A stretch of 64,000 bases of DNA, taken from Octopus vulgaris. Taxonomy: Eukaryota. Below, one piece after another: positions 5,001-60,037 of this stretch. A model generated the notes under the pieces. The model was not told the DNA's origin. It saw nothing but the letters and a program-made list of their open reading frames with translations, and did not search any database. Position 1 is the first letter of the stretch. Each line of letters begins with the position of its first letter. A program made the position numbers and the translations under genes. The stretch spans positions 22,506,001 through 22,570,000 of the forward strand of contig OX597825.1 of assembly GCA_951406725.2 (NCBI GenBank), written 5' to 3'.

Positions 5001-5408
5001 CTGTGTGGTAAGACGCTTGCTTCCCAACCACATGGTTCCGGGTTCAGTTCCACTGCGAGGCACCTTGGGTGGGTGCCTTCTTCTATAACCTCGGGTTGAC
5101 CACAGCCTTGTGAGTCGATTTGGAAAACTGATATTGAAAGAAGCCCATCGTATATATTTATATACGTATATATTCGTGTGTGTTTGTGTGTGTCCCCCAC
5201 CCCCGCAATAACTTGACAACCGATGCTGGTGTGTCTATGTTCACTTAACTTAGCGGTTCGGCAAAAGTGACCGATAGAATAAGTACTAGGCCTACAAAGA
5301 ACATGTCCTAGTGGGGGGCGGGCTATTCCTTCGACTAACACCCTTTAAAGCGGTACACCAGCATGGACGCGGTCACGTGACTGTCACAAGTAAAAGAATA
5401 TAAGAATA
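5001..5408 (+). mobile_element. SINE family A (tRNA-derived, CORE-type), 5'-clipped
   Basis: ctgtgtggtaag..GGTTCAGTTCC B-box, caccttggg CORE-like block, internal (TA)/(TG) tract, gtaaaaga tail; matches other A copies in the window. Confidence 0.85.
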
Positions 5409-6095: not shown

Positions 6096-6589
6096 ATAGG
6101 CGCAGGAGTGGCTATAGGCGCAGGAGTGGCTATAGGCGCAGGAGTGGCTATAGGCGCAGGAGTGGCTATAGGCGCAGGAGTGGCTGTGTGGTAGTAGCTT
6201 GCTAAACAACCACATGGTTCCGGGTTCAGTGTCTCACTGCGTGGCATCTTGGGCAAGTGTCTTCTGCTATAACCCCGGGCCGACCAATGCCTTGTGAGTG
6301 GATTTGGTAGACGGAAACTGAAAGAAGCCTGTCGTATATATGTATATATATATGTGTGTGTGTTTGTGTGTCTGTGTGTCTGTGTTTGTCCCCTAGCATT
6401 GCTTGACAACCGATGCTGGTGTGTTTACGTCCCCGTCACTTAGCGGTTCGGCAAAAGAGACTGATAGAGTAAGTACTGGGCTTACAAAGAATAAGTCCTG
6501 GGGTCGATTTGCTCGACTAAAGGCGGTGCTCCAGCATGGCCGCAGTCAAATCACTGAAACAAGTAAAAGAGTAAAAGAGTAAAAGAGTA
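6096..6589 (+). mobile_element. SINE family A, full length, with a 5x tandem-duplicated 18-bp head
   Basis: (ataggcgcaggagtggct)x5 at 6096-6185, then the complete body and a (gtaaaaga)n tail. Confidence 0.92.
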
Positions 6590-9060: not shown

Positions 9061-9450
9061 GTAGCTATGTGGTAAGAAGCTTGCTCTCCAAACACATTGT
9101 TCCAGATTCAGTCTTCTTATTTGAAACCTTGGACATGTGTTTTCTACTATAGCTTCGGGCCGACCAGAGTCTTGTGAAAGGATTTAGTAAAAGAAGCCCG
9201 TCGTATATACACATGTGTGTGTGTGTATGAGAGAGAGTGTCTGCCTTTGTGGATGTGTTTGTCTGCCACCACTTGATAACCAGTATCGGTGTGTTTACAT
9301 CCGCATGACCTAGCGGTTTGGGAAAGAGACTGATAGAATAAACACCAGGCTTTAAACTGTATGTCTGGGGGGTTGATTCATTGGACTATAAGTTCTCCAA
9401 GGCTGTTTCCCAGCATGGCCACAGTCTAATGACTGAAGCATGTAAAAGAA
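9061..9450 (+). mobile_element. SINE family A, old diverged copy
   Basis: Colinear similarity to 6168-6589. Confidence 0.8.
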
Positions 9451-11359: not shown

Positions 11360-11507
11360 GGATTTAGCTGGTACTAATTTTACCGTCTCCGAAAGGATGA
11401 AATGCAAAGTCGAACTCGGCAGCATTTGAATTCAGAACGTAAAGACGAACAAAATACCGCTAAGCATTTTCTCCGGAGCGCTAACAATTCTGCCAGTACG
11501 CCGCCTT
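11360..11507 (-). mobile_element. SINE family B, older subfamily
   Basis: Reverse complement begins ggcggcgtactggcagaattgttagc..ggtatttt..gttctgaattcaaat..ctttgcatttcatcctttcgg. Confidence 0.8.
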
Positions 11508-11888
11508 ATTTTCAAATTTTAAATTAAGGCCTTCAAAGAGAATAGAAGTTGCCTGATAATTGACTTTACAGTCCCAAATGAAAAAAAAAACACATCAATA
11601 TGAGAGTTATAGAAAAACTAGCAAAGTACCAGGACCTAGTCATTGAGTTACAGAGACTATGGAAAGTGCAGGTAAAATGTATCCCAGTAGTTATAGGTGC
11701 GTTAAGACCTATCCCTAAAAATTTGAACAGATGGATAAAGGAAATGGGCATAAAACCCAGTCCAGTACATCTCCAGAAAACAACGTCATTAAGGGCAACT
11801 AGGATACTTTGGAAGGTTCTTGGCATCAAAGGTTACTTGTTGTAGCCCGATGTTAGGAATTTTTCTTTTCAAACAATCTAATCTATTG

Positions 11889-12119: not shown

Positions 12120-12159
12120 TATAATAATAACAACAACAATAATTTCTTTTATTTAATCA

Positions 12160-12372
12160 TTTCTACTAAAGGCTCAAGACCTGTCATTTGGTGAGAAAGC
12201 ACTAGTCGATTAGATTGACCCCAGGATTCAGCTGGCATTTTTCTTATCGAAGCCGAAAGGATGAAAGGCGAAGTCAAACTCGGCAGCATTTGAATTCAGA
12301 ACGTAAAGACGGACAAAATGCCGCTTAGCATTTCTGTCCGGAATGATAACAGTTGTGCCAGCTCGGCGCCTT
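12160..12372 (-). mobile_element. SINE family B, older subfamily
   Basis: gaaaggatgaaaggcgaagtc..tttgaattcagaacgtaaagacgg..gctcggcgcc. Confidence 0.8.
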
Positions 12373-13757
12373 AGTTTCAAATTTTAACTTAAGATCTGTA
12401 ACTTCAGGACAGATGGAGTAGTCAATTGCAATGAAGAGCAAAATAAACTCCATTCTCATATAAACCTCACCTCTTTAAAAAAACATTTCTCTGACTGTCT
12501 AACAATTCTACCATCTCACCTACTTATTATTGATATTGACAATAAAATAGGTAATGTGATGAAATTACAAATATGAAGCAAAATTATGAAGCAAGAACTG
12601 GAATTAAATATTGCTAATAAAAAAAAAAATTCCAAACAATCATGACGAGAGAAAATTAATTAATCAGAAGTAATGAAGTAAATAATTTTTTCAGATCTAT
12701 TTATTATCTTACTTTAAAAGACGAAAGTGAATAGGCGGAGTGAACAGGAAATGAAAATAATGCTGACGTGCTGGATATCAAAAATTTCTATAAGTATTTT
12801 TTTTTCTGAAGTTTGGAACGCAAAATCTCTCCTTGTCTTGTCGTTTTTGTGTTTGCTTTGCAAGATTCTTGTTATGAATTCGTGTACTGAAAGGTTTTGC
12901 TTGATGTTTCAGTAATTAACCGAATGTTTATCGAAACGAACGATAAGTTAGTTACGTAAATAACTAACACGTTGACGAATAAGAAATACGTGAAACGCAA
13001 CCTGTGCATGTTATTATTGGCGTTAATAACACCCCAGACATGCAACGAAATATTGCAACCTTTTATTAATGATACTTGATTGTGACAAGATTTTGAATAA
13101 GGATTCTTCAGGGCACGCAAAGTTCAACATGCATTCTCTAGAACTTTATGTTATGTTTTGTTAAATTATGTGGCTCAATGTGCCTTGGTGTATAATTTTG
13201 AACCACTAAGCTAGCGTGCAGTATAGAATGCCATGAACTATTGGTTTCGAGTTTCTAAACTCTGAGTTCAAATGACGTCATTACAAAACTTGGTATCAAT
13301 CAGTGAGATCGTTAAAGAAAATATCACTCAAATACTGATGTCAATTTCTCTACCGAACACGCACACACACACACACATACTTTCTATCTCACTCTCTATT
13401 TCACTCTCTATCTCACTCTCTCTCTCTTTCAATCTTTCAAACAAACACACGCACGCACACACGCACACACACACATACACACACCATGTTTTAATTTGGT
13501 CTCGCTTCAAACATGCCTCGTAAGAAGTCTCAAAACAAGTGTGTTCGCAAACGTTGGCCCACAAAATAATGACCAGTATGTATCTACATCAAACACTTTC
13601 TTATCTTATATTATGTCGGTGGGCTTAAACTAACATATTGAATTCAGGTTCGTAATATCATCAGCGTGGTCCAATGACTGGGTAGTACATTGCAACGTTG
13701 GCCAAAAGACTCTACTTCATTTTATTTCACTCCGTTGAGCTGAAGCATGCGCAACAT

Positions 13758-26656: not shown

Positions 26657-27068
26657 AGGCGCAGGAGTGGCTGTGTGGTAAGTAGCTTGCTAACCAACCG
26701 CATGGTTCCGGGTTCAGTCCCACTGCGTGGCATCTTGGGCAAGTGTCTACTGCTATAGCCCCGGGCCGACCAAAGCCTTGTGAGTGGATTTGGTAGACGG
26801 GAACCGAAAGAAGCCTGTCGTATATATGTATATATATGTATGTGTGTGTTTGTGTGTCTGTGTTTGTCCCCCTAGCATTGCTTGACAACCGATGCTGGTG
26901 TGTTTACGTCCCCGTCACTTAGCGGTTCGGCAAAAGAGACCGATAGAATAAGTTCTGGGCTTACAAAGAATAAGTCCCGGGGTCGATTTGCTCGACTAAA
27001 GGTGGTGCTCCAGCATGGCCACAGTCAAATGACTGAAACAAGTAAAAGAGTAAAAAAGAGTAAAAGAG
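26657..27068 (+). mobile_element. SINE family A, young full-length copy
   Basis: Near-identical to 6168-6589 and 59622-60037. Confidence 0.92.
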
Positions 27069-31360: not shown

Positions 31361-31402
31361 CTAGAAAACCAAGAAGTTCTGTGTCGTTGTTTTGGTAATA
31401 GT

Positions 31403-31633
31403 TATTTGTTTGCTAACCACAAGGGGCTAAACATAGAGGGGACAAACAAGGACAGACAAACGTATTAAGTCGGTTATATCGACCCCAGTGCGTAACTGGT
31501 ACTTAATTTATCGACCCCGAAAGGATGAAAGGTAAAGTCAACCTCGGCGGAATTTGAACTCAGAATGTAATGCCAGACGAAATACGGCTACGCTTTTCGC
31601 CCGGCGTGCAAACGTGCAAAGGCTCGCCGCCTT
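31403..31633 (-). mobile_element. SINE family B with a 16-bp TSD
   Basis: ttgttttggtaatagt at 31387-31402 and 31634-31649. Confidence 0.92.
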
Positions 31634-36944: not shown

Positions 36945-37158
36945 TTACTCTTTACTTTCTTTTACTCTTTTACTCTTTTAATTGTTTCAGTCATTTGACT
37001 GCGGCCATGCTGGAGCACCGCCTTTTTAGTCGAGCAAATCAAGCCCGGGACTTATTCTTTGTAAGCCCAGTACTTATTCTATCGGTCACTTTTGCCGAAC
37101 CGCTAAGTGACGGGGACGTAAACACACCAGCACCGGTTGTCAAGCAATGCTAGGAGGA

Positions 37159-37214
<56 letters not shown>

Positions 37215-37395
37215 ATATATACATATATACGACGGGCTTCTTTCAGTTTTCCTCTACCAAATCCACTCACAAGGCTTTGGTCGGCCTGAGGCTATAGCAG
37301 AAGACACTTGCCCAAGATGTCACGCAGTGAGACACTGAACCCGGAACCATGTGGTTGGTTAGCAAGCTACTTTCCACGCAGCCACTTCTGCGCCT
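36945..37395 (-). mobile_element. SINE family A, full length
   Basis: Reverse complement of the A consensus with a (ttactctt)n tail at left. Confidence 0.92.
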
Positions 37396-37714
37396 GAGAT
37401 ATTTTGAGATATTTTGTTAGTGATCTTGTGTTACACTTTAAAAACAGCTTCATATAAACGACAGTAGCATCAGCAGCAGTAACTTGAAGTAATCAACTGA
37501 TAACCAAAATTGTCACACGCCAATGAACCTGTGAAAGACCTTCGACAGAGTAGTACGATTTGCTTCTCGAATTTATAATTACTGGCTTTCTTAATATTTT
37601 GAGACAGTTGACAATAATGAAGCCCCGGAGAGAAAATATCTGAAGCAATACACCGTTTAGTCTAGGGTTACAATAAGTTCAAATAAAACTAATACATCCA
37701 TAATAAACATACAC

Positions 37715-41681: not shown

Positions 41682-42185
41682 TAACTGCTCTCTGTGAATC
41701 AACCGATCAGCTGCTTTTGTCAAAGTGGTTTCAGCGCCAATCCTGGTCTCACCCATCAGCGCCATGCTCTCTTTACTCCAAGCCGGCTTCACGCAACTTC
41801 ACATCAGGAAACTTGCATACCAAATACCACAGACAAATAGACAGATAGACACACACACACACACACATACACGTACACATGCACATGCAAACACACGTTG
41901 ACACACTCACATTCAAGTTTATAATAAAAATATTTTTGCATTAAACTAAAGACTTACCCAATACTTTGTAGAATACAAAATTTTTATTCTTTAACAAGCA
42001 TAGTATTGACCGTCTTCGAAGTTTAGGTCAGCTAATCCATAATCCGGCTGTCTGATGACGTCCTATTTGAACGAAACTTTGGTTTCACTAAACTCTTTTT
42101 AACACTAGAAACCCGGACTTTTCACCTACTTTAAGGACCAAAATGTATCAAATGACGAAAGAAATTTATCCTTACGAAATAAAAA

Positions 42186-42813
42186 GGAGTGGCTTTGTGG
42201 TAGGTAGCTTGCTTCCGAAACACATGGTTCCGGGTTCAGTCCCACTGCGTGTCACCTTGGGCAAGTGTCTTCTACTATAGCCTCGGGCCTACCAATGCAT
42301 TGTGAGTGTATTTTAATTTGAAGACGGGAACTGAAAGAAGCCCGTCGTATATATGTATGTATATATATTTGTGTGTGTATATGTTTGTGTGTCCATGCCC
42401 CCCCCCCCCAACATCGCTTGACAACCAATGCTGGTGTGTTTACGTCCCCGTAACCTAGCGGCCCGGCAGAAGAAACCGATAGAATAAGTACTAGACTTAC
42501 ACAAAGAATAAGTCTTGGGGCCGATTTACTCAGCTAAAAGGCGGTGCTCAAGTATGGCCACCTGGCAGAAACGTTAGAGCGCCGGGCGAAATGCTTAGCG
42601 GTATTTCGTCTGTCATTACGTTCTGAGTTCAAATTCCGCCGAGGTCGACTTTGCCTTTCATCATCTGGGGGTCGATAAATAAAGTACCAGTTTCGCACTG
42701 GAGTCGATGTAATCGACTTAATCCCTTTGTCTGTCCTTGTTTGTCCCCTCTGTGTTTAGCCCCTTGTGGGCAATAAAGATATACACATTCAAATGTCTGA
42801 AACAAGTAAACAG
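42186..42813 (+). mobile_element. SINE family A with a family-B copy (42562-42783) nested in its 3' end
   Basis: A body to ..tatggcca, then B from ctggcagaaacgttag to caataaagat, then the A tail aaatgtctgaaacaagtaaa resumes. Confidence 0.85.
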
Positions 42814-42829
42814 TAAGAGAGTATTCATC

Positions 42830-43420: not shown

Positions 43421-44636
43421 AACAAAAGCAAGTTTTCAAAAGTTTCAAAAGTTCCCCATGAGTCAATTGACGGTTGTGGTCCTTATAGGTAGTTTGTGGT
43501 TTATGTTTTTGTTTTTTTACATTTGGTGCAAACAAACTATAATTTATAGTATGTATCGATATCACAAAACTATGAAAATTCAAGAACCATGATGTCAAAA
43601 TCTACAATAGTTTTTGAATTGTGTGCAATTGAGGTTCCAAAATGGGTCAATTGATATATTCGGTTCTATATGTGCGTGTGTGTATGTGTATGGTTATGTA
43701 TGTGTATGTGTGTGTTTGAGTGTGTTTGTGTGTGCGTATGTGTGTGCATGTGTGTGTATGTATATGTAAGTATGTATATATTATATTACATAAAATATGT
43801 ATTAAGTTAAAAATACAATGCCCGGTTAGCCAGATGGGTAAGGAGAAAGATAAGAAGAAATTAAATACAGATTAAAATAAAGCAGAATAAGATACAATAG
43901 AGGGGAAAAAAAGGAAAATAAAAAGAATTAAAACAATACAAAATACAATAAATATAGTGGAGTTTTAATTTTCAATAAAGGTTTTATCTTGTATAATAGG
44001 TGGATGGATATAATTTTTTTTAAAGCTCAAGGATATGAAAGCTATATAGATTCTTGGATGTGAATGTATATATTTTTCTTGAGAAAAATTCTTAGTTTCA
44101 CACACTCTCAATCCATTCAAGTGGGAAAAGGAATGATACTAGAACGGACCGCCAAAGGTGAGAATATATATAGGACGCAGAATCCAGGATTCTGTTCTTA
44201 TGAGCCTACGATTCCGTTAAGGCTTTTGATACTTTCTGTTTTTTATACGGTTTATTAAAGTTATATTTAATCTTGTTGGGAAAAGCTCGATTAAACCACG
44301 AATAGAGCTCGATTACTCGCTTCTGATGACAAGGAATAGATTATACTATTACACTAATTTGTTTAATTCCCAAAATAGTGCAAGTACTACGACGTGGGAA
44401 TTGTTGAATGCAAGCGGCATAATATAGTGGCATGGTACGTAGCTATGTAATGCAAATAAAGACACACACATACACACACATACACACACGCACACACACA
44501 CACACACGCATATTCCTGGATATAGGGGGAAATAGACAAAATATGAAGATGCAAGGTCTCTATTAAGTAACTGATTTTACATGCGTAACTAGAGAGAGAA
44601 ATATCTCTTTAGGTTTAGTTTTACCCAACCTTCATC

Positions 44637-44806
44637 AGGCGTAGGAGTTGCTGTGTGGTAAGTAGATGATTTACGAACCACATGGTTCCGGGTTCAGTCC
44701 CACTGCGTGGCACCTTGGGCAAGTGTCTTCTACTATAGCCTCAGGCCAACCAAAGCCTTGTGAGTGGATTTAGTAGACGGACACTGAAAGAAGCCCGTCG
44801 TATATA

Positions 44807-44861
<55 letters not shown>

Positions 44862-45078
44862 ATACGTTTGTGTGTCTGTGTTTGCCCTTCCAGCATCGCT
44901 TCACAACCGATCCTGGTGTGTTTAAGTCCCCGGAACTTAGCGGTTCGGCAAAAGAGACCGATAGAATAAGTACTAGGCTTACAAAGAATAAGTCCTTGGG
45001 TAGATTTACTCGACTAGAAGCGGTGCTCCAGCATGGTCACAATCATATGACTGAAACAAGTAAAATAGTAAAAGAGTA
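44637..45078 (+). mobile_element. SINE family A, full length
   Basis: Colinear with other A copies. Confidence 0.9.
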
Positions 45079-45544
45079 GGACCGGTTAGAGTGGAAACAG
45101 TAGCTTCTTTCTATTTGCACCATTGAACTGGGCCTCGAGTATATTAACCGAGTCACGAGTATTAACAACACTTTATAATTAACTCTTAAAAGAAATATAC
45201 GGTAATGCGATAAACAAATGTGGAGTATTTTTCCTTATAATAACATGCGATTGTTTTCTTGTTGGTATATTTCAATTTATAAATTACTCGTTAGTAATTA
45301 TTTCACGTTATACTAATTAAAGAAAGTTGCTCGTGTTCGAGTGTAAACGTACTACGTATAATTTTTTTTTTAAAATTCTTTTTATGAGCAAGAATACTTA
45401 TTTTTCTTCTCTGATTAATTAATATATTGTAGGATTTTGTTGCCAGAGGTAATATGAAAATGACTACGCCATGAATATTATGGGTCTCTGTTCACAGAAA
45501 GAATCAATATATCATTGCTAGAAAAACACGACGCACATATAATT

Positions 45545-46308
45545 CATTCTACTTAAAGCACAAGGCCAGAAATTCGGGGGAAGGAGGCTAATCCATTACA
45601 TAGACCCTAGTGTTTCATTGGAACTTAATTTATCGACCATGAAAGGAGTGAAGGCAAAATCCACTTCGGTGGAAGATGAATTCAGAACGAAGCGACGAGC
45701 GGAATACCTATTTCTTTACTACCCACAAGGGGTTAAACACAGAGAGGACAAACAAGGACAGATAAAAAGGATTAAGTCGATTATAGCGACCCCAGTGCGT
45801 AACTGGTACTTATTTAATCGACCCCGAAAGGATGAAAGGCGAAGTCGACCTCGGCGGAATTTGAACTCAGAACGTAACGGCAGACGAAATACCTATTTCT
45901 TTACTACCCACAAGGGGTTAAACACACTGAGGACAAACAAGGACAGAAAAACGGATTAAGTCGATTATAGCGACCCCAGTGCGTAACTGGTACTTATTTA
46001 ATCGACCCCGAAAGGATGAAAGGCGAAGTCGACCTCGGCGGAATTTGAACTCAGAACGTAACGGCAGACGAAATACCTATTTCTTTACTACCCACAAGGG
46101 GTTAAACACACTGAGGACAAACAAGGACAGAAAAACGGATTAAGTCGATTATAGCGACCCCAGTGCGTAACTGGTACTTATTTAATCGACCCCGAAAGGA
46201 TAAAAGGCGAAGTCGACCTCGGCGGAATTTGAATAATGAACGTAGCGGCAGACGAAATACCGCTAAGCATTTCTTCCAGCGCACTAACGATTCTGCCAGC
46301 TCGCCGCC
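45545..46308 (-). mobile_element. SINE family B: three head-less ~184-bp units nested inside an older B copy
   Basis: Junction aatacctatttctttac at 45703, 45888 and 46072; old-type head 46261-46308 and old-type body/tail 45545-45702. Confidence 0.88.
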
Positions 46309-46340
46309 TACGCACGCACACACACACACACACACACACA

Positions 46341-46381
<41 letters not shown>

Positions 46382-46686
46382 TTGATGATATGTAAAGGTG
46401 AAAATACGGTACACATATACATAATATGTAAAAGTGAAAGTATGGTAGACGTTACCAAAGCACATTTTTTGTGAGTGATAGCCAGCTGTGGCTGTTTCTT
46501 TTGATCGAAGGATCAAAAGTAAGCTTCGAGTAGTCTATAGAATATACAAAAACAACTTTCGGGAACAATAGTGGTTTATTGGCGTAGAAGGATGTAATTT
46601 TTTCCCACATGGAGATTCGATATGTTGAAAAAAGTTATTTTACAGTTTACAGTTTGAAACTAGGATTGGAATATATGCTAGTAAAA

Positions 46687-52109: not shown

Positions 52110-53332
52110 CTATTCCAGAGGAGGAGGTAAGTCAAACGAGTTTGACATTGTCTTTCATACTTTCGGGGTCGATAAAATAAGTACTTGTTGCATACTGGGG
52201 TCGATCTAATTGACGGGTTCTCTCCACCAAAATTTCGGGCTTTGTGCCTAGAGTAGTAAACATTCTGCTAGCTCGCCGCCTTGAACTTGCATTTTATTCT
52301 ACTTTTAATAATTAAACTCCATGTTGCCTGTAAACTTTTGAAAGCGACACATTAGCTGCCATCGAACCCGAAAAGATAAAGGGAAAAGTCGTGCACGGCG
52401 AAATTTGACCTTAGAAGGTAAAAACGGACACAATGCCGTTAAGCTTTTTGCCCAGCGCGCTAACGTTTCTGCCATCTCGCCAAAGTGGTGAGCTAGCATA
52501 GCAGAAACGTTAGCTTGCCGAGGCAAAGTCAACCTCGGCGGAATTTGAACTCAGAACGTAGCGGCAGACGAAATACCTATTTCTTTACTACCCACAAGGG
52601 GCTAAACATAGAGGGGACAAACAAGGACAGACACACGGATTAAGTCGTTTACATCGAGCCCCAGTGCGTAACTGAGGATAAATTAAGTACCAGTTACGCA
52701 CTGGGGTCGATTAAATCGACTTAATCCGTGTGTTTGTCCTTGTTTGTCCTCTCTGCGTTTAGCCCCTTGTGGGTAGTAAAGAAATAGGTATTTCGTCTGC
52801 CGCTACGTTCTGAGTTCAAATTCTGCCGAAGTGGACTTTGCCTTTCATCCTTTCGGGGTCGATTAAATAGGTACCAGTTACGCACTGGGGTCGATATAAT
52901 CGACTTAATCCGTTTGTCTGTCCTTGTTTGTCCTCTCTGCGTTTAGCCCCTTGTGGGTAGTAAAGACATAGTTATTTCGTCTGCCGCTACGTTCATAGTT
53001 CAAATTCCGCCGAGGTTGACTTTGCCTTTCATCCTTTCGGGGTCGATTAAATAAGTACCAGTTACGCACTGGGGTCGATATAATTGACTTAATCCGTTGT
53101 CTGTCCTTGTTTGTCTTCTCTGTGTTTAGCCCCTTGTGGGTAGTAAAGAAATAGGTATTTCGTCTGCCGCTATGTTCTGAGTTCAAATTCCGCCGAAGTC
53201 GACCGTGTCTTTCATCCTATCGGGAGGTCAATAAATTAAGTAACAGTTGCGCATGGGGGTTTGTCTAATCGACTTATACCCCTTCCCCACTCCCCCAAAA
53301 TATCGTGCCTTGTGCCTAGAGTAGAAATGATT
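52110..53332. mobile_element. Complex family-B SINE cluster: old copies, head-to-head heads, an inverted segment and a head-less tandem array
   Basis: Minus head ends ~52482 and plus head starts ~52486; inverted body 52522-52673; plus units with gaaataggtatttcg-type junctions near 52785, 52970 and 53153; old-type tail to 53332. Confidence 0.85.
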
Positions 53333-53579
53333 GTGCCGTCTGGAATTTGCATTTTATTCTTCTTTGAATAATTAAATTTCATATTGCTTGTAAATCTGTA
53401 AAAGAGATATTTTGAGAGCGAGGCTTTAGCTGCCAAAGATAAAGAAAAAGTAGAATATTTAGAATGAGTGCAGTTCATAGTTCAATTTCTATTAATTTTA
53501 TATAATTTTAAGAGGCGTGTCCAGAAGATTTGTAAAGGTAATGAATACGCTCAATAATATCCCCGATTGCCTACATGTA

Positions 53580-54128: not shown

Positions 54129-54341
54129 AGGGCGGCGAGCTGGCAGAAACGTTAGCACGCCGGGCGAAATGCTTGGCGGTATTTCGTCAGCCGCTGCGTT
54201 CTGAGTTCAAATTGCGCCGAGGTAGACTTTGCCTTTCATCCTTTCGGGGTCGATGAAATACATACCACTTACGCACTGGGGTCGATATAATAAACATAAT
54301 CCGTTTGCCTGTCCTTGTTTGTCCTTGTGGGTAGTAAAGAA
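54129..54341 (+). mobile_element. SINE family B inserted in (ATT)n
   Basis: ggcggcgagctggcagaaacgttagcacgccgggcgaaatg..GAGTTCAAATT..gtagtaaaga. Confidence 0.9.
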
Positions 54342-55846: not shown

Positions 55847-56076
55847 AGGCAGCGAGCTGGCAGAAACGTTAGCACGCCGGGCGAAATGCGTAGCTGTATT
55901 TCGTCTGCCGTTACGTTCTGGGTTCAAATTCCGCCGAGGTCGACTTTGCCTTTCTTCCTTTCGAGCTCGATAAATTAAGTACCAGTTACGCACTGGGGTC
56001 GATGTAATCGACTTAATCCGTGTGTCTGTCCTTGTTTGTCCCCTCTGTGTTTAGCCCCTTGCGGATAGTAAAGGAA
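55847..56076 (+). mobile_element. SINE family B, full-length monomer
   Basis: Complete head, B-box GGGTTCAAATTCC, body and tagtaaaggaata end. Confidence 0.92.
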
Positions 56077-56800
56077 TATATATCGTAGCAGCGATTTGAA
56101 AGCTTGACTTAATGAAAATGACATAAAAATCTATACCAAATCATACACAGATTCATTAAATAGAAAGTTTGAAAATGAGAAGTAAGTCACCCATATAAAA
56201 CTCCATGAAACAAAAATTATTCATCGACGCTGATAACTATCTGGTTTCTCAATCATGTTGACAGGTAACCGAATAGCCATCAAAAACAGTATCACGATAT
56301 TAAGATATTTGACCAAGAAGATATTCTGCTGAGCCTTCAATCTGAAAGTCCTGTCTTTATATTCACACAAAAACGTTCAACTCTTGACCTACATAAAAAC
56401 AAACCGAGTTTAAGTATAAAATAACATGTTATCTAATCCGCTTGTCAACTGCATTTTATCTTATAAAACACAAGTCAATATGTAACGAAGAATTTTTTTA
56501 TAAGCTGCGTATTTATATTCAGAAATCGGATTAGATACAAATAAAGACAAAGCATTTGAGAAGAGAAAATACAGAAATGTCAATATTTTTGCAAAACAAA
56601 TACCTACACATGCCACAGTCAAATTGAGTATCAGAAGTAAGATGGCGCCACAACACACACACTTATACAGCATCTGTGCATATCAATGCACGCAATCTGT
56701 TTGTGTCTCAACGTATCTATCCAACTATACACACACAGACACACACACACATACACACACACACATACACACACATACACACATACACACACACGTATAC

Positions 56801-56861
<61 letters not shown>

Positions 56862-56866
56862 AGATT

Positions 56867-57032
56867 AGGCGCAGGAGTGGCTGTGTGGTGAGAAGCTTGC
56901 TTCCGAACCACATGGTCCTGAGTTCAGTCCCACTGCATGACACATTGGGCAAGTTCCTTCTACTATAGCTTCGTGTCGACTAAACCTTTGTGAGTGGATT
57001 TGGTAGACTAGACGGAAACTGAAAGAAGCCCG

Positions 57033-57086
<54 letters not shown>

Positions 57087-57270
57087 CCTCCACCACCAGC
57101 ACCATCATTGTTTGACAACCGATGTTGGTGTATTTACGTCTACGTAACTTAGCAGATCAGCAGAAGGGACCGATATTATAAGTACTACGATTAAAGATTA
57201 AATCCTGGGCTCGATTTGTTCAACGAAAAGCGGTGCTCCAGCATGTCCACAACCAAAAGAATAAAAGAAT
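56867..57270 (+). mobile_element. SINE family A with an expanded internal (TA)n
   Basis: Colinear with the A consensus. Confidence 0.88.
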
Positions 57271-59007: not shown

Positions 59008-59244
59008 TCTCTTTTACTCTTTTACTCTTTTACTTGTTTCAGTCATTTGACTGCGGTCATGCTGGAGCACCGCATTTAGTCGAGCAAATCGACCCCGGGG
59101 ACTTATTCTTTGTTAGCCCAGTACTTATTCTATCGGTCTCTTTTGCCGAACCGCTAAGTGACGGGGACGTAAACACACCAGCATCGGTTGTCAAGCAATG
59201 CTAGGGTGACAAACACACACACACACAAACACACATACACACAC

Positions 59245-59281
<37 letters not shown>

Positions 59282-59437
59282 CATATATACGACAGGCTTC
59301 TTTCAGTTTCCGTCTACCAAATCCACTCAGAAGGCATTGGTTGACCCGGGGCTATAGCAGAAGACACTTGCCCAAGACTGAACCCGGAACCATGTGGTTG
59401 GTTAGCGAGCTACTTACCACACAGCCACTCCTGCGCT
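59008..59437 (-). mobile_element. SINE family A (small deletion in the head)
   Basis: Reverse complement of the A consensus. Confidence 0.9.
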
Positions 59438-59621
59438 TATATTGAATTCTTAGAAATCTAGGAAATTTCTTTTTGTTTGACGTATAAAATGCATTTGAAT
59501 ATTGTGACGCTGTTCTCACAGATTTGCTATATGGAGGAGATCAAATAATTACGTAGAATATCAAATGTTCAATCACTAAATACAACAAAACAAAGCTGAA
59601 TTAAATATAATTTGTACATAC

Positions 59622-60037
59622 AGGCGCAGGAGTGGCTGTGTGGTAAGTAGCTTGCTTACAAACCACATGGTTCCGGGTTCAGTCCTACTGCGTGGCACCT
59701 TGGGTAAGTTTCTTCTACTATAGCCCTGGGCCGACCAATGCCTTGTGAGTGGATTTGGTAGACGGAAACTGAAAGAAGCCTGTCGTATATATGTATATAT
59801 GTATATATATGTGTGTGTGTTTGTGTGTCTGTGTTTGTCCCCCTAGCATTGCTTGACAACCGATGCTGGTGTGTTTACGTCCCCGTCACCTAGCGGTTCG
59901 GCAAAAGAAATCCGACAGAATAAGTACTGGGCTTACAAAGAATAAGTCCTTGGGGTCGATTTCCTCAACTAAAGATGGTGCTCCAGCATGGCCGCAGTCA
60001 AATGACTGAAACAAGTAAAAGAGTATAAAAAAGAGTA
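59622..60037 (+). mobile_element. SINE family A, full length
   Basis: Near-identical to 26657-27068. Confidence 0.92.

Follow-up and report, generated by a model that had tools for sequence, protein, structure and literature searches.

In squamates, SINE-derived satellites (sSat) consist of tandem units that are cut from a tRNA-SINE, are shorter than the element itself and keep fixed boundaries across many loci; the accessible part of PMC10702118 attributes these satellites to unequal recombination. Long homogenised arrays and a bias towards subtelomeres also characterise the class. As PMC10702118 describes, sSat3 of snakes begins at position 42 with box B retained, sSat3Ati2 of a whiptail (179 nt) spans part of the head, the body and the LINE-derived region, minor variants contain both SINE termini, and unit number varies between orthologous loci; the same part of the paper describes neither older-subfamily termini nor RNA-mediated spread. 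The clam Scapharca broughtonii carries TSD-(SINE)n-TSD multimers with a complete first head, head-truncated repeats and a last unit that has the same truncation and a complete tail, and their internal units, all of one family, lack the tail end (PMC11481361, accessible part). Dip, B2 and Ves frequently form head-to-tail SINE multimers of up to eight units, the origin of which the accessible part of PMC8466645 leaves open between insertion into a tail and multimeric templates; these units are full-length according to the accessible part of PMC10702118. Metazoan non-LTR retrozymes are non-autonomous units of 170-400 nt that form tandem copies via RNA and whose defining features are a type I hammerhead ribozyme in every unit and a circular RNA (PMC11722881, accessible part). 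Two tRNA-derived SINE families of octopus, OR1 and OR2, are named in the accessible parts of PMC4824008 and PMC4758252, and the family described below resembles these OR SINEs in combining a putative tRNA-like head, a conserved centre and exchangeable tails.

Here we describe two arrays, 6 kb apart and in opposite orientations, within a 64-kb window (the whole stretch of octopus DNA that was analysed), which is AT-rich, microsatellite-rich animal DNA. Judged from alignments, their anatomy matches that of known SINE-derived satellites, and their in-register entry into older relatives was not found described. Like sSat, they are built of head-to-tail SINE portions with SINE termini at one or both ends, and the unit boundaries are the same at the two loci. 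Unlike sSat, they hold 3-4 units only, and these units run to the natural 3' end of the element; their terminal unit belongs to an older subfamily with another tail, and one of them includes a 5'-inverted segment. With so few units, they would count as short loci under the sSat working threshold of at least four middle monomers (PMC10702118, accessible part). They share the layout of the clam multimers, but their internal tails are complete and their termini come from older hosts, and they differ from the Dip, B2 and Ves tandems in that the units are head-less and lie in register inside a relative. No hammerhead was found in the units, which sets them apart from the retrozymes.

Searching the window by BLAST with the head and one unit returned eight non-array copies in addition to the second array. 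The copies, one of them with a 15-nt target-site duplication, are dispersed short repeats, as expected of a tRNA-derived SINE, and fall into two subfamilies that have head and centre in common and differ in the tail. Four are free long-tail copies (31.6, 42.5, 54.1 and 55.8 kb): 31402-31633 on the minus strand, full-length and flanked by the duplication; 42562-42785 (plus), inserted in the tail of another SINE family; 54131-54341 (plus), in a (TTA)n tract and with a 17-nt tail deletion; and 55847-56078 (plus), full-length. The other four (11.5, 12.3, 52.1 and 52.4 kb) are of the older short-tail type, two of them being truncated before the tail and grouped by similarity. They comprise 11365-11507 (minus), 3'-truncated and assigned by head and body similarity, with 15/99 differences from 12154-12372; 12154-12372 itself (minus), full-length and followed by (ATT)n; 52137-52258 (plus), 5'-truncated; and 52361-52483 (minus), 3'-truncated. 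The copies at 11.5 and 12.3 kb, 0.9 kb apart, also have about 25 nt of upstream flank in common (11508-11530 and 12373-12395), which suggests another old local duplication.

The labels A-box and B-box given here to parts of the SINE head rest on what we take to be the Pol III consensus; the motifs presumably correspond to these boxes, with about 19 nt more between them than a plain tRNA has. No tRNA was found by ARAGORN in the window, and Rfam found no tRNA match over 45400-46500, where its one match was a chance scaRNA hit on (TG)n. The family centre resembles what we take to be the central domain of Nin/Deu SINEs, which presumably also combine a tRNA-like head, a conserved centre and exchangeable tails, and octopus is assumed to have a third tRNA-derived SINE family. 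Short-motif look-ups for the Nin/Deu, CORE or Meta superfamily in the supplements of four papers gave no informative match, and comparison by eye with the bivalve Meta and V consensus sequences showed no match. The 3' tail of a tRNA-derived SINE is shared with a partner LINE; no such LINE was found in the window, where the tails match only SINE copies.

The window also contains about 12 copies of a second abundant SINE of about 400-450 nt, at 44620-45075 and about 11 other places, including 5001-5405, 6170-6578, 9061-9447, 13758, 26657-27055, 36966-37397, 42185-42820, 56864-57269, 59018-59436 and 59621-60028. Its copies carry an internal (TA)n(TG)n tract, their 3' part resembles the centre of the junction-bearing family, and we take their own centre to be CORE-like. 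Two of them lie head-to-head about 185 nt apart at 59018-60028, where they form a long imperfect inverted repeat.

The first array (array 1, 45541-46309, minus strand) reads from a tRNA-like SINE head through three head-less long-tail units into a diverged body with a different tail, and Tandem Repeats Finder (TRF) reports it at 45619-46261 with a period of 184 bp, 3.5 copies and 93% matches. The head (46262-46309, 48 nt) is SINE nt 1-48 with the A-box-like motif. It is followed by U1 (46078-46261, 184 nt), U2 (45894-46077, 184 nt) and U3 (45709-45893, 185 nt), and then by the terminal body and tail (45541-45708, 168 nt), a copy of the old short-tail subfamily. A possible 3' target-site duplication copy at 45531-45537 is weak, consisting of a 7-nt match to 46314-46320 whose 5' copy lies inside a (TG)n tract.

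An earlier sequence-only reading of this DNA had proposed that in array 1 the natural 3' end of the SINE is joined directly to the interior of the head three times, about 45 nt in, and both TRF and minus-strand mapping of the units confirm the joint, which we place at nt 48|49. That reading also described the enclosing element as old and diverged. The description holds for the last body, which has 33/122 mismatches to the long-tail majority besides its different tail. It does not extend to the head, which differs from three of the four long-tail heads at 5-7/38 positions, from the fourth at 15/36 and from three short-tail heads at 6-11/38, and which has two short-tail and three long-tail states at five diagnostic columns; its subfamily appears ambiguous and its age not clearly old. 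Likewise, the B-box that was thought to be kept in every unit is intact in U2 and U3 but has its first G changed in U1.

The near identity of the units, also proposed earlier, is real and in part reflects a 249-nt exact repeat at lag 184. U1 and U2 differ at 6/184 positions, U2 and U3 at 4/184, and U1 and U3 at 10/184; because 6 and 4 add up to 10 and the exact repeat is present, U2 can be read as the 5' part of U3 joined to the 3' part of U1, with each of which it is identical over that part. From its letters, U2 is apparently a recent one-period duplication or an assembly expansion. Local unequal crossover or assembly error, which the sequence-only reading had named as a way to explain the whole away, can thus account for U2 but not for the junction. 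All units of array 1 have three private variants in common, and a two-base variant in the first 30 nt of U1 recurs in the third unit of the other array.

That second array (array 2, 52484-53333), overlooked in the sequence-only reading, is reported by TRF as a 184-bp array at 52679-53276. It opens with the decayed head stub of the host SINE (52484-52520, plus, about nt 1-32), followed by an inverted 154-nt segment (52521-52674, minus) that contains the 3' part of one unit, a junction at 52578|52577 and the 5' 57 nt of the next unit. The direct part, on the plus strand, begins with the 3' 109 nt of a long-tail unit (U1, 52678-52786) and continues through U2 (52787-52970, 184 nt) and U3 (52971-53153, 183 nt) to a terminal unit (53154-53333) of which the first 43-50 nt are of the young long-tail type and the remainder is an old short-tail body and tail. 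Array 2 thus holds two complete and three partial units, compared with three units between head and last body in array 1, and it contains a 48-nt exact run at lag 184.

A 25-nt junction motif occurs seven times in the window at up to three mismatches, against zero expected from 100 shuffles, with three occurrences in array 1 and four in array 2 (52569-53162). In all seven, at two loci of opposite orientation, the natural 3' end is joined to nt 49, so that variation in junction position among arrays, which the sequence-only reading had named as grounds for abandoning its proposal, was not seen. The natural 3' end is defined by the free copy at 31402-31633, which stops there and is followed by the 15-nt target-site duplication, and the copy at 55847-56078 ends at the same place. 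Every head-less start (7/7) directly follows a SINE tail, and BLAST over the 64-kb window found no head-less unit standing alone in unique sequence. At 31402-31633, 42562-42785 and 55847-56078, and also at the junction, a C stands immediately 5' of the apparent insertion point; these boundaries are ambiguous, and the observation is only a lead on endonuclease preference.

The junction coincides with a predicted structural boundary. A hairpin of 13-14 bp spanning head nt 32-61 (46249-46278, minus strand, in array 1) is predicted both from single folds and from the consensus fold of eight heads of both subfamilies, with slight compensatory change (2/24 pairs). The joint at 48|49 lies at the 3' edge of its loop, and each unit starts at the first base of the 3' strand of the hairpin. 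Furthermore, nt 3-8 of the unit complement the last six bases of the SINE. Among 169 possible starts, nt 48-51 alone give at least five complementary bases with the 3' end (p about 0.02 for one event). This suggests that the junction may have been made by fold-back or template switching, the match counting as one observation if the origin was single. The fold stability of the monomer and of the unit does not exceed that of shuffles (z -1.0 and -1.2).

We next consider the hosts, since the sequence-only reading had proposed self-targeting into relatives at one position. The terminal bodies of the two arrays are 54/162 apart. The terminus of array 2, together with about 120 nt of flank (53334-53452), is paralogous to 52137-52390, with 36/129 differences in the SINE part; the non-SINE flank alone (paralogous to 52259-52390) scores 86 against a shuffled maximum of 33. 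The two segments, 52137-52390 and 53194-53452, stem from an old duplication at this locus that took in the 3' part of a short-tail SINE, a head stub in inverted orientation and some 90 nt of unique flank, so that 52137-52258 is an old paralog of the array 2 host, and 52361-52483 lies head-to-head with that host. Because it shares unique flank with an old paralog, the array 2 host is older than its young units. Alignment thus supports two separate old hosts that carry young units in register, and this part of the earlier proposal stands. The probability that a random insertion falls within 5 nt of the position, on the same strand, in one of 10 non-array family copies is about 9e-4.

What is fixed is the joint between units, and not necessarily the crossover with the host. 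The last body of array 1 departs from the units at its seventh base, placing the switch within about 11 nt of the junction, and both switches of this array, on the head side and on the body side, lie within about 12 nt of it. The last unit of array 2 remains young for at least 43 nt, over which it differs from adjacent units at 1-2 positions and from old copies at 10-14. Over this stretch the two arrays differ in their distance from U2 of array 1 (2/43 against 11/43 for array 2 and array 1, respectively; Fisher p=0.014), while a position-free permutation test of the array 2 change-point is not significant (p=0.18), and later conversion by neighbouring units could have moved that point. If the data are taken literally, the junction was already part of the template, which joined its host by homology; crossovers that differ between arrays are as expected of such a template.

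The units themselves point to a mixed ancestry. Divergence is 5.4% and 6.0% within the arrays, 7.3% between them and 13.8% among free long-tail monomers. Array 2 units carry different multi-site haplotypes that are also present in free copies or in array 1, its 5' units having free-monomer states and its 3' units the array-type states common to array 1. At alignment columns 141 and 144 (5/6 units) and 213 (6/7), units of the two arrays have states in common that are absent from three of the four free monomers. This distribution argues for a common pool of array-type units that would lie outside both arrays. Neither array is the direct donor of the other, and the three private variants exclude array 1 as the direct donor of array 2. 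A tree of nine units supports the array 1 clade only; it places the free 54.1-kb monomer with the units of array 2, without support. Copying from one circular template, one of the mechanisms offered in the sequence-only reading, agrees with array 1 and not with the mixed haplotypes of array 2.

Two features bear on a possible RNA step. Runs of four T are absent from the direct part of array 2 and from all four free long-tail copies, and read-through of an array from one head is therefore possible; array 1 has T4-T5 runs, which it has acquired. The inverted 5' segment of array 2 has a gap of 20 nt where the orientation switches, and its left end matches the host head over a short, imperfect stretch; this is the form described for twin priming (PMC2912911, accessible part). 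According to the same part of that paper, 5' inversion is very rare in human trans-mobilised SINEs (Alu 1/5554, SVA 4/477). The segment has 10 mismatches to its adjacent mirror and 10 to the next repeat, and this equal distance does not favour fold-back duplication, which gives the same shape and may still be its source.

The reading that we tentatively prefer is that the junction arose once and that arrays were transcribed as multimers, re-inserted in register into relatives by homology and then expanded locally. It starts from the anatomy, the fixed junction, the two old hosts, the one local duplication and the mixed haplotypes, to which it would add transcription, reverse transcription and priming by homology. 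The junction would have been created once, when an insertion or a template switch took place at the edge of the loop in the head hairpin, the one place where the 3' end of the SINE complements its own interior. Pol III would then read through a head-bearing array, the long-tail unit and junction having no run of four T. Each tail in such a multimer RNA would run into sequence shared with every family member from nt 49 on. LINE reverse transcription could therefore be primed at a nick in a relative and resolved in register, to yield a host head, n young units and the host body, and the crossover could lie at any point of the region in common. Homology, and not a site-specific nuclease, would provide the targeting. 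Tandem duplication by one period, seen for one unit, would add further copies. Against the preferred reading, the arrays are two loci only, 6 kb apart, and local enrichment is possible; moreover, the placement of both array 1 crossovers so close to the junction is not something that the homology model requires.

Recombination at the DNA level is a close rival of the multimer-RNA reading, and we rate it as somewhat unlikely. The junction would go back to one nested insertion, and the many homologous SINE copies would have exchanged array segments by ectopic gene conversion or unequal recombination, which would also have changed unit number. The exact one-period duplication that yielded U2 of array 1, the 48-nt run at lag 184 in array 2, the proximity of the arrays and the older local duplication and inversion in this region all fit such a history, as does the attribution of squamate satellites, with their fixed boundaries, to unequal recombination in the accessible part of PMC10702118. 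Donor and host, however, are just about 73-80% identical. Identity of that order is low for homologous recombination. The failure of either array to serve as direct donor of the other also weighs against recombination at the DNA level, and the second abundant SINE, with its 12 or so copies in the window, forms no such array.

A bolder form of the RNA reading, conceivable and on balance unlikely, treats this SINE lineage as one that parasitises its own family by homing: array transcripts, in the form of linear multimers and perhaps also of 184-nt circles, would be reverse-transcribed in register into any of the many family copies in the genome. The joint between tail and nt 49 would then act as the transcript's own targeting sequence, and capture of a host's promoter head would make new sources.

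We consider it improbable that the arrays grew unit by unit through repeated insertion of monomer RNAs into family members nicked at nt 48|49. Such a nick would fall at the loop edge of a hairpin that both subfamilies keep, the shared head would resolve the 5' end without duplication, and both the tight array 1 switches and the heterogeneous array 2 units would be accommodated. Independent insertions would not be expected, however, to yield three private variants across the array 1 units or array-type units that differ from most free monomers, nor does the young sequence 43 nt beyond the last array 2 junction fit; furthermore, the single-unit (dimer) case is absent among the eight other family copies in the window.

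Still less probable is that a 184-nt circular RNA, formed when the loop of the head hairpin was cleaved and the paired ends were ligated, underwent rolling-circle reverse transcription. Pairing of the six 3'-terminal bases with nt 3-8 is predicted in four of the five full units (probability 0.5-0.99; 0.01 in U2 of array 2), and one template would explain the private variants found in all array 1 units. On the other side, array 2 haplotypes differ and are shared with other loci, the circular fold of the unit is no more stable than shuffles (z -0.49 and 0.11), and Rfam returned no ribozyme match in 45400-46500. A hammerhead core was rejected, the core-like word lying only on the antisense strand of two duplicated units.

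The last alternative, that the assembly is at fault or that head, units and short tail make up a composite SINE family moving as a single block, is very unlikely: a mis-assembled unit could produce the 249-nt exact repeat, and the weak 7-nt flank match around array 1 would suit a block, but six other junctions lie between diverged units, the terminal bodies differ by a third, and the unique flank shared with an old paralog takes the array 2 host out of any composite master, a dimeric family being rejected on the same grounds.

As a proxy for a genome count, we searched protein sets with junction-spanning antisense frames, which gave 13 matches in all. Twelve are SINE-derived, P0008 being dropped as an unrelated repeat protein, and the junction occurs in none of the 12; these are mostly diverged copies and cluster representatives, and the power of the count is modest. 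Nine of the 12 run on into the head (two weakly), and two suggest tandem long-tail units with other junctions. Those two, P0007 and P0011, resemble antisense translations of head-to-tail long-tail units with the head kept to about nt 22 and 46. Some of the protein searches with these frames returned no match, and one returned a single match that did not contain the junction. GTDB scans with the junction and a body motif gave 0 and 0, and six window motifs were found in no paper among the full texts searched. The protein count weighs against genome-wide spread, in that the junction may be rarer genome-wide than in the window, as far as translated sequence can tell.

The antisense translation of the repeat matches the SINE-derived segment of a predicted Octopus bimaculoides kelch-like protein (E 1.6e-5), and the SINE family is therefore present in that species. 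Residues 419-468 of this protein (P0001, kelch-like protein 10 isoform X1) appear to be an antisense exon, read in frame and derived from a short-tail copy, that stops at about nt 48-49, where the antisense strand appears to be one change from a good splice donor. The SINE-derived segment ends at nt 49, but judged from the reading frame of the protein the exon would end one base away from the junction. For this reason, and since the units keep the whole tail and have no acceptor at the antisense start, back-splicing of an antisense transcript was rejected as their source.

Tandem runs shaped like these have been described in reptiles and in a clam, and what is new here is their likely pasting into older relatives. 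Our literature search found neither older-subfamily termini nor in-register RNA-mediated insertion, which subscription papers, Repbase-type libraries or supplements may describe. The accessible part of PMC10702118 leaves unexplained the fixed boundaries that persist over thousands of sSat loci. The octopus arrays keep a record absent in sSat, as their older-subfamily hosts allow crossover points, unit lineage and insertion marks to be read locus by locus. If the arrays did not spread by RNA guidance, they are an ordinary short SINE-derived tandem in octopus. If they did, they would show a LINE reverse transcriptase aimed by RNA-DNA homology in nature, and the homing reading, if true, would amount to retrohoming of a non-coding element under the guidance of homology, and would give SINEs a direct path through RNA to satellites.
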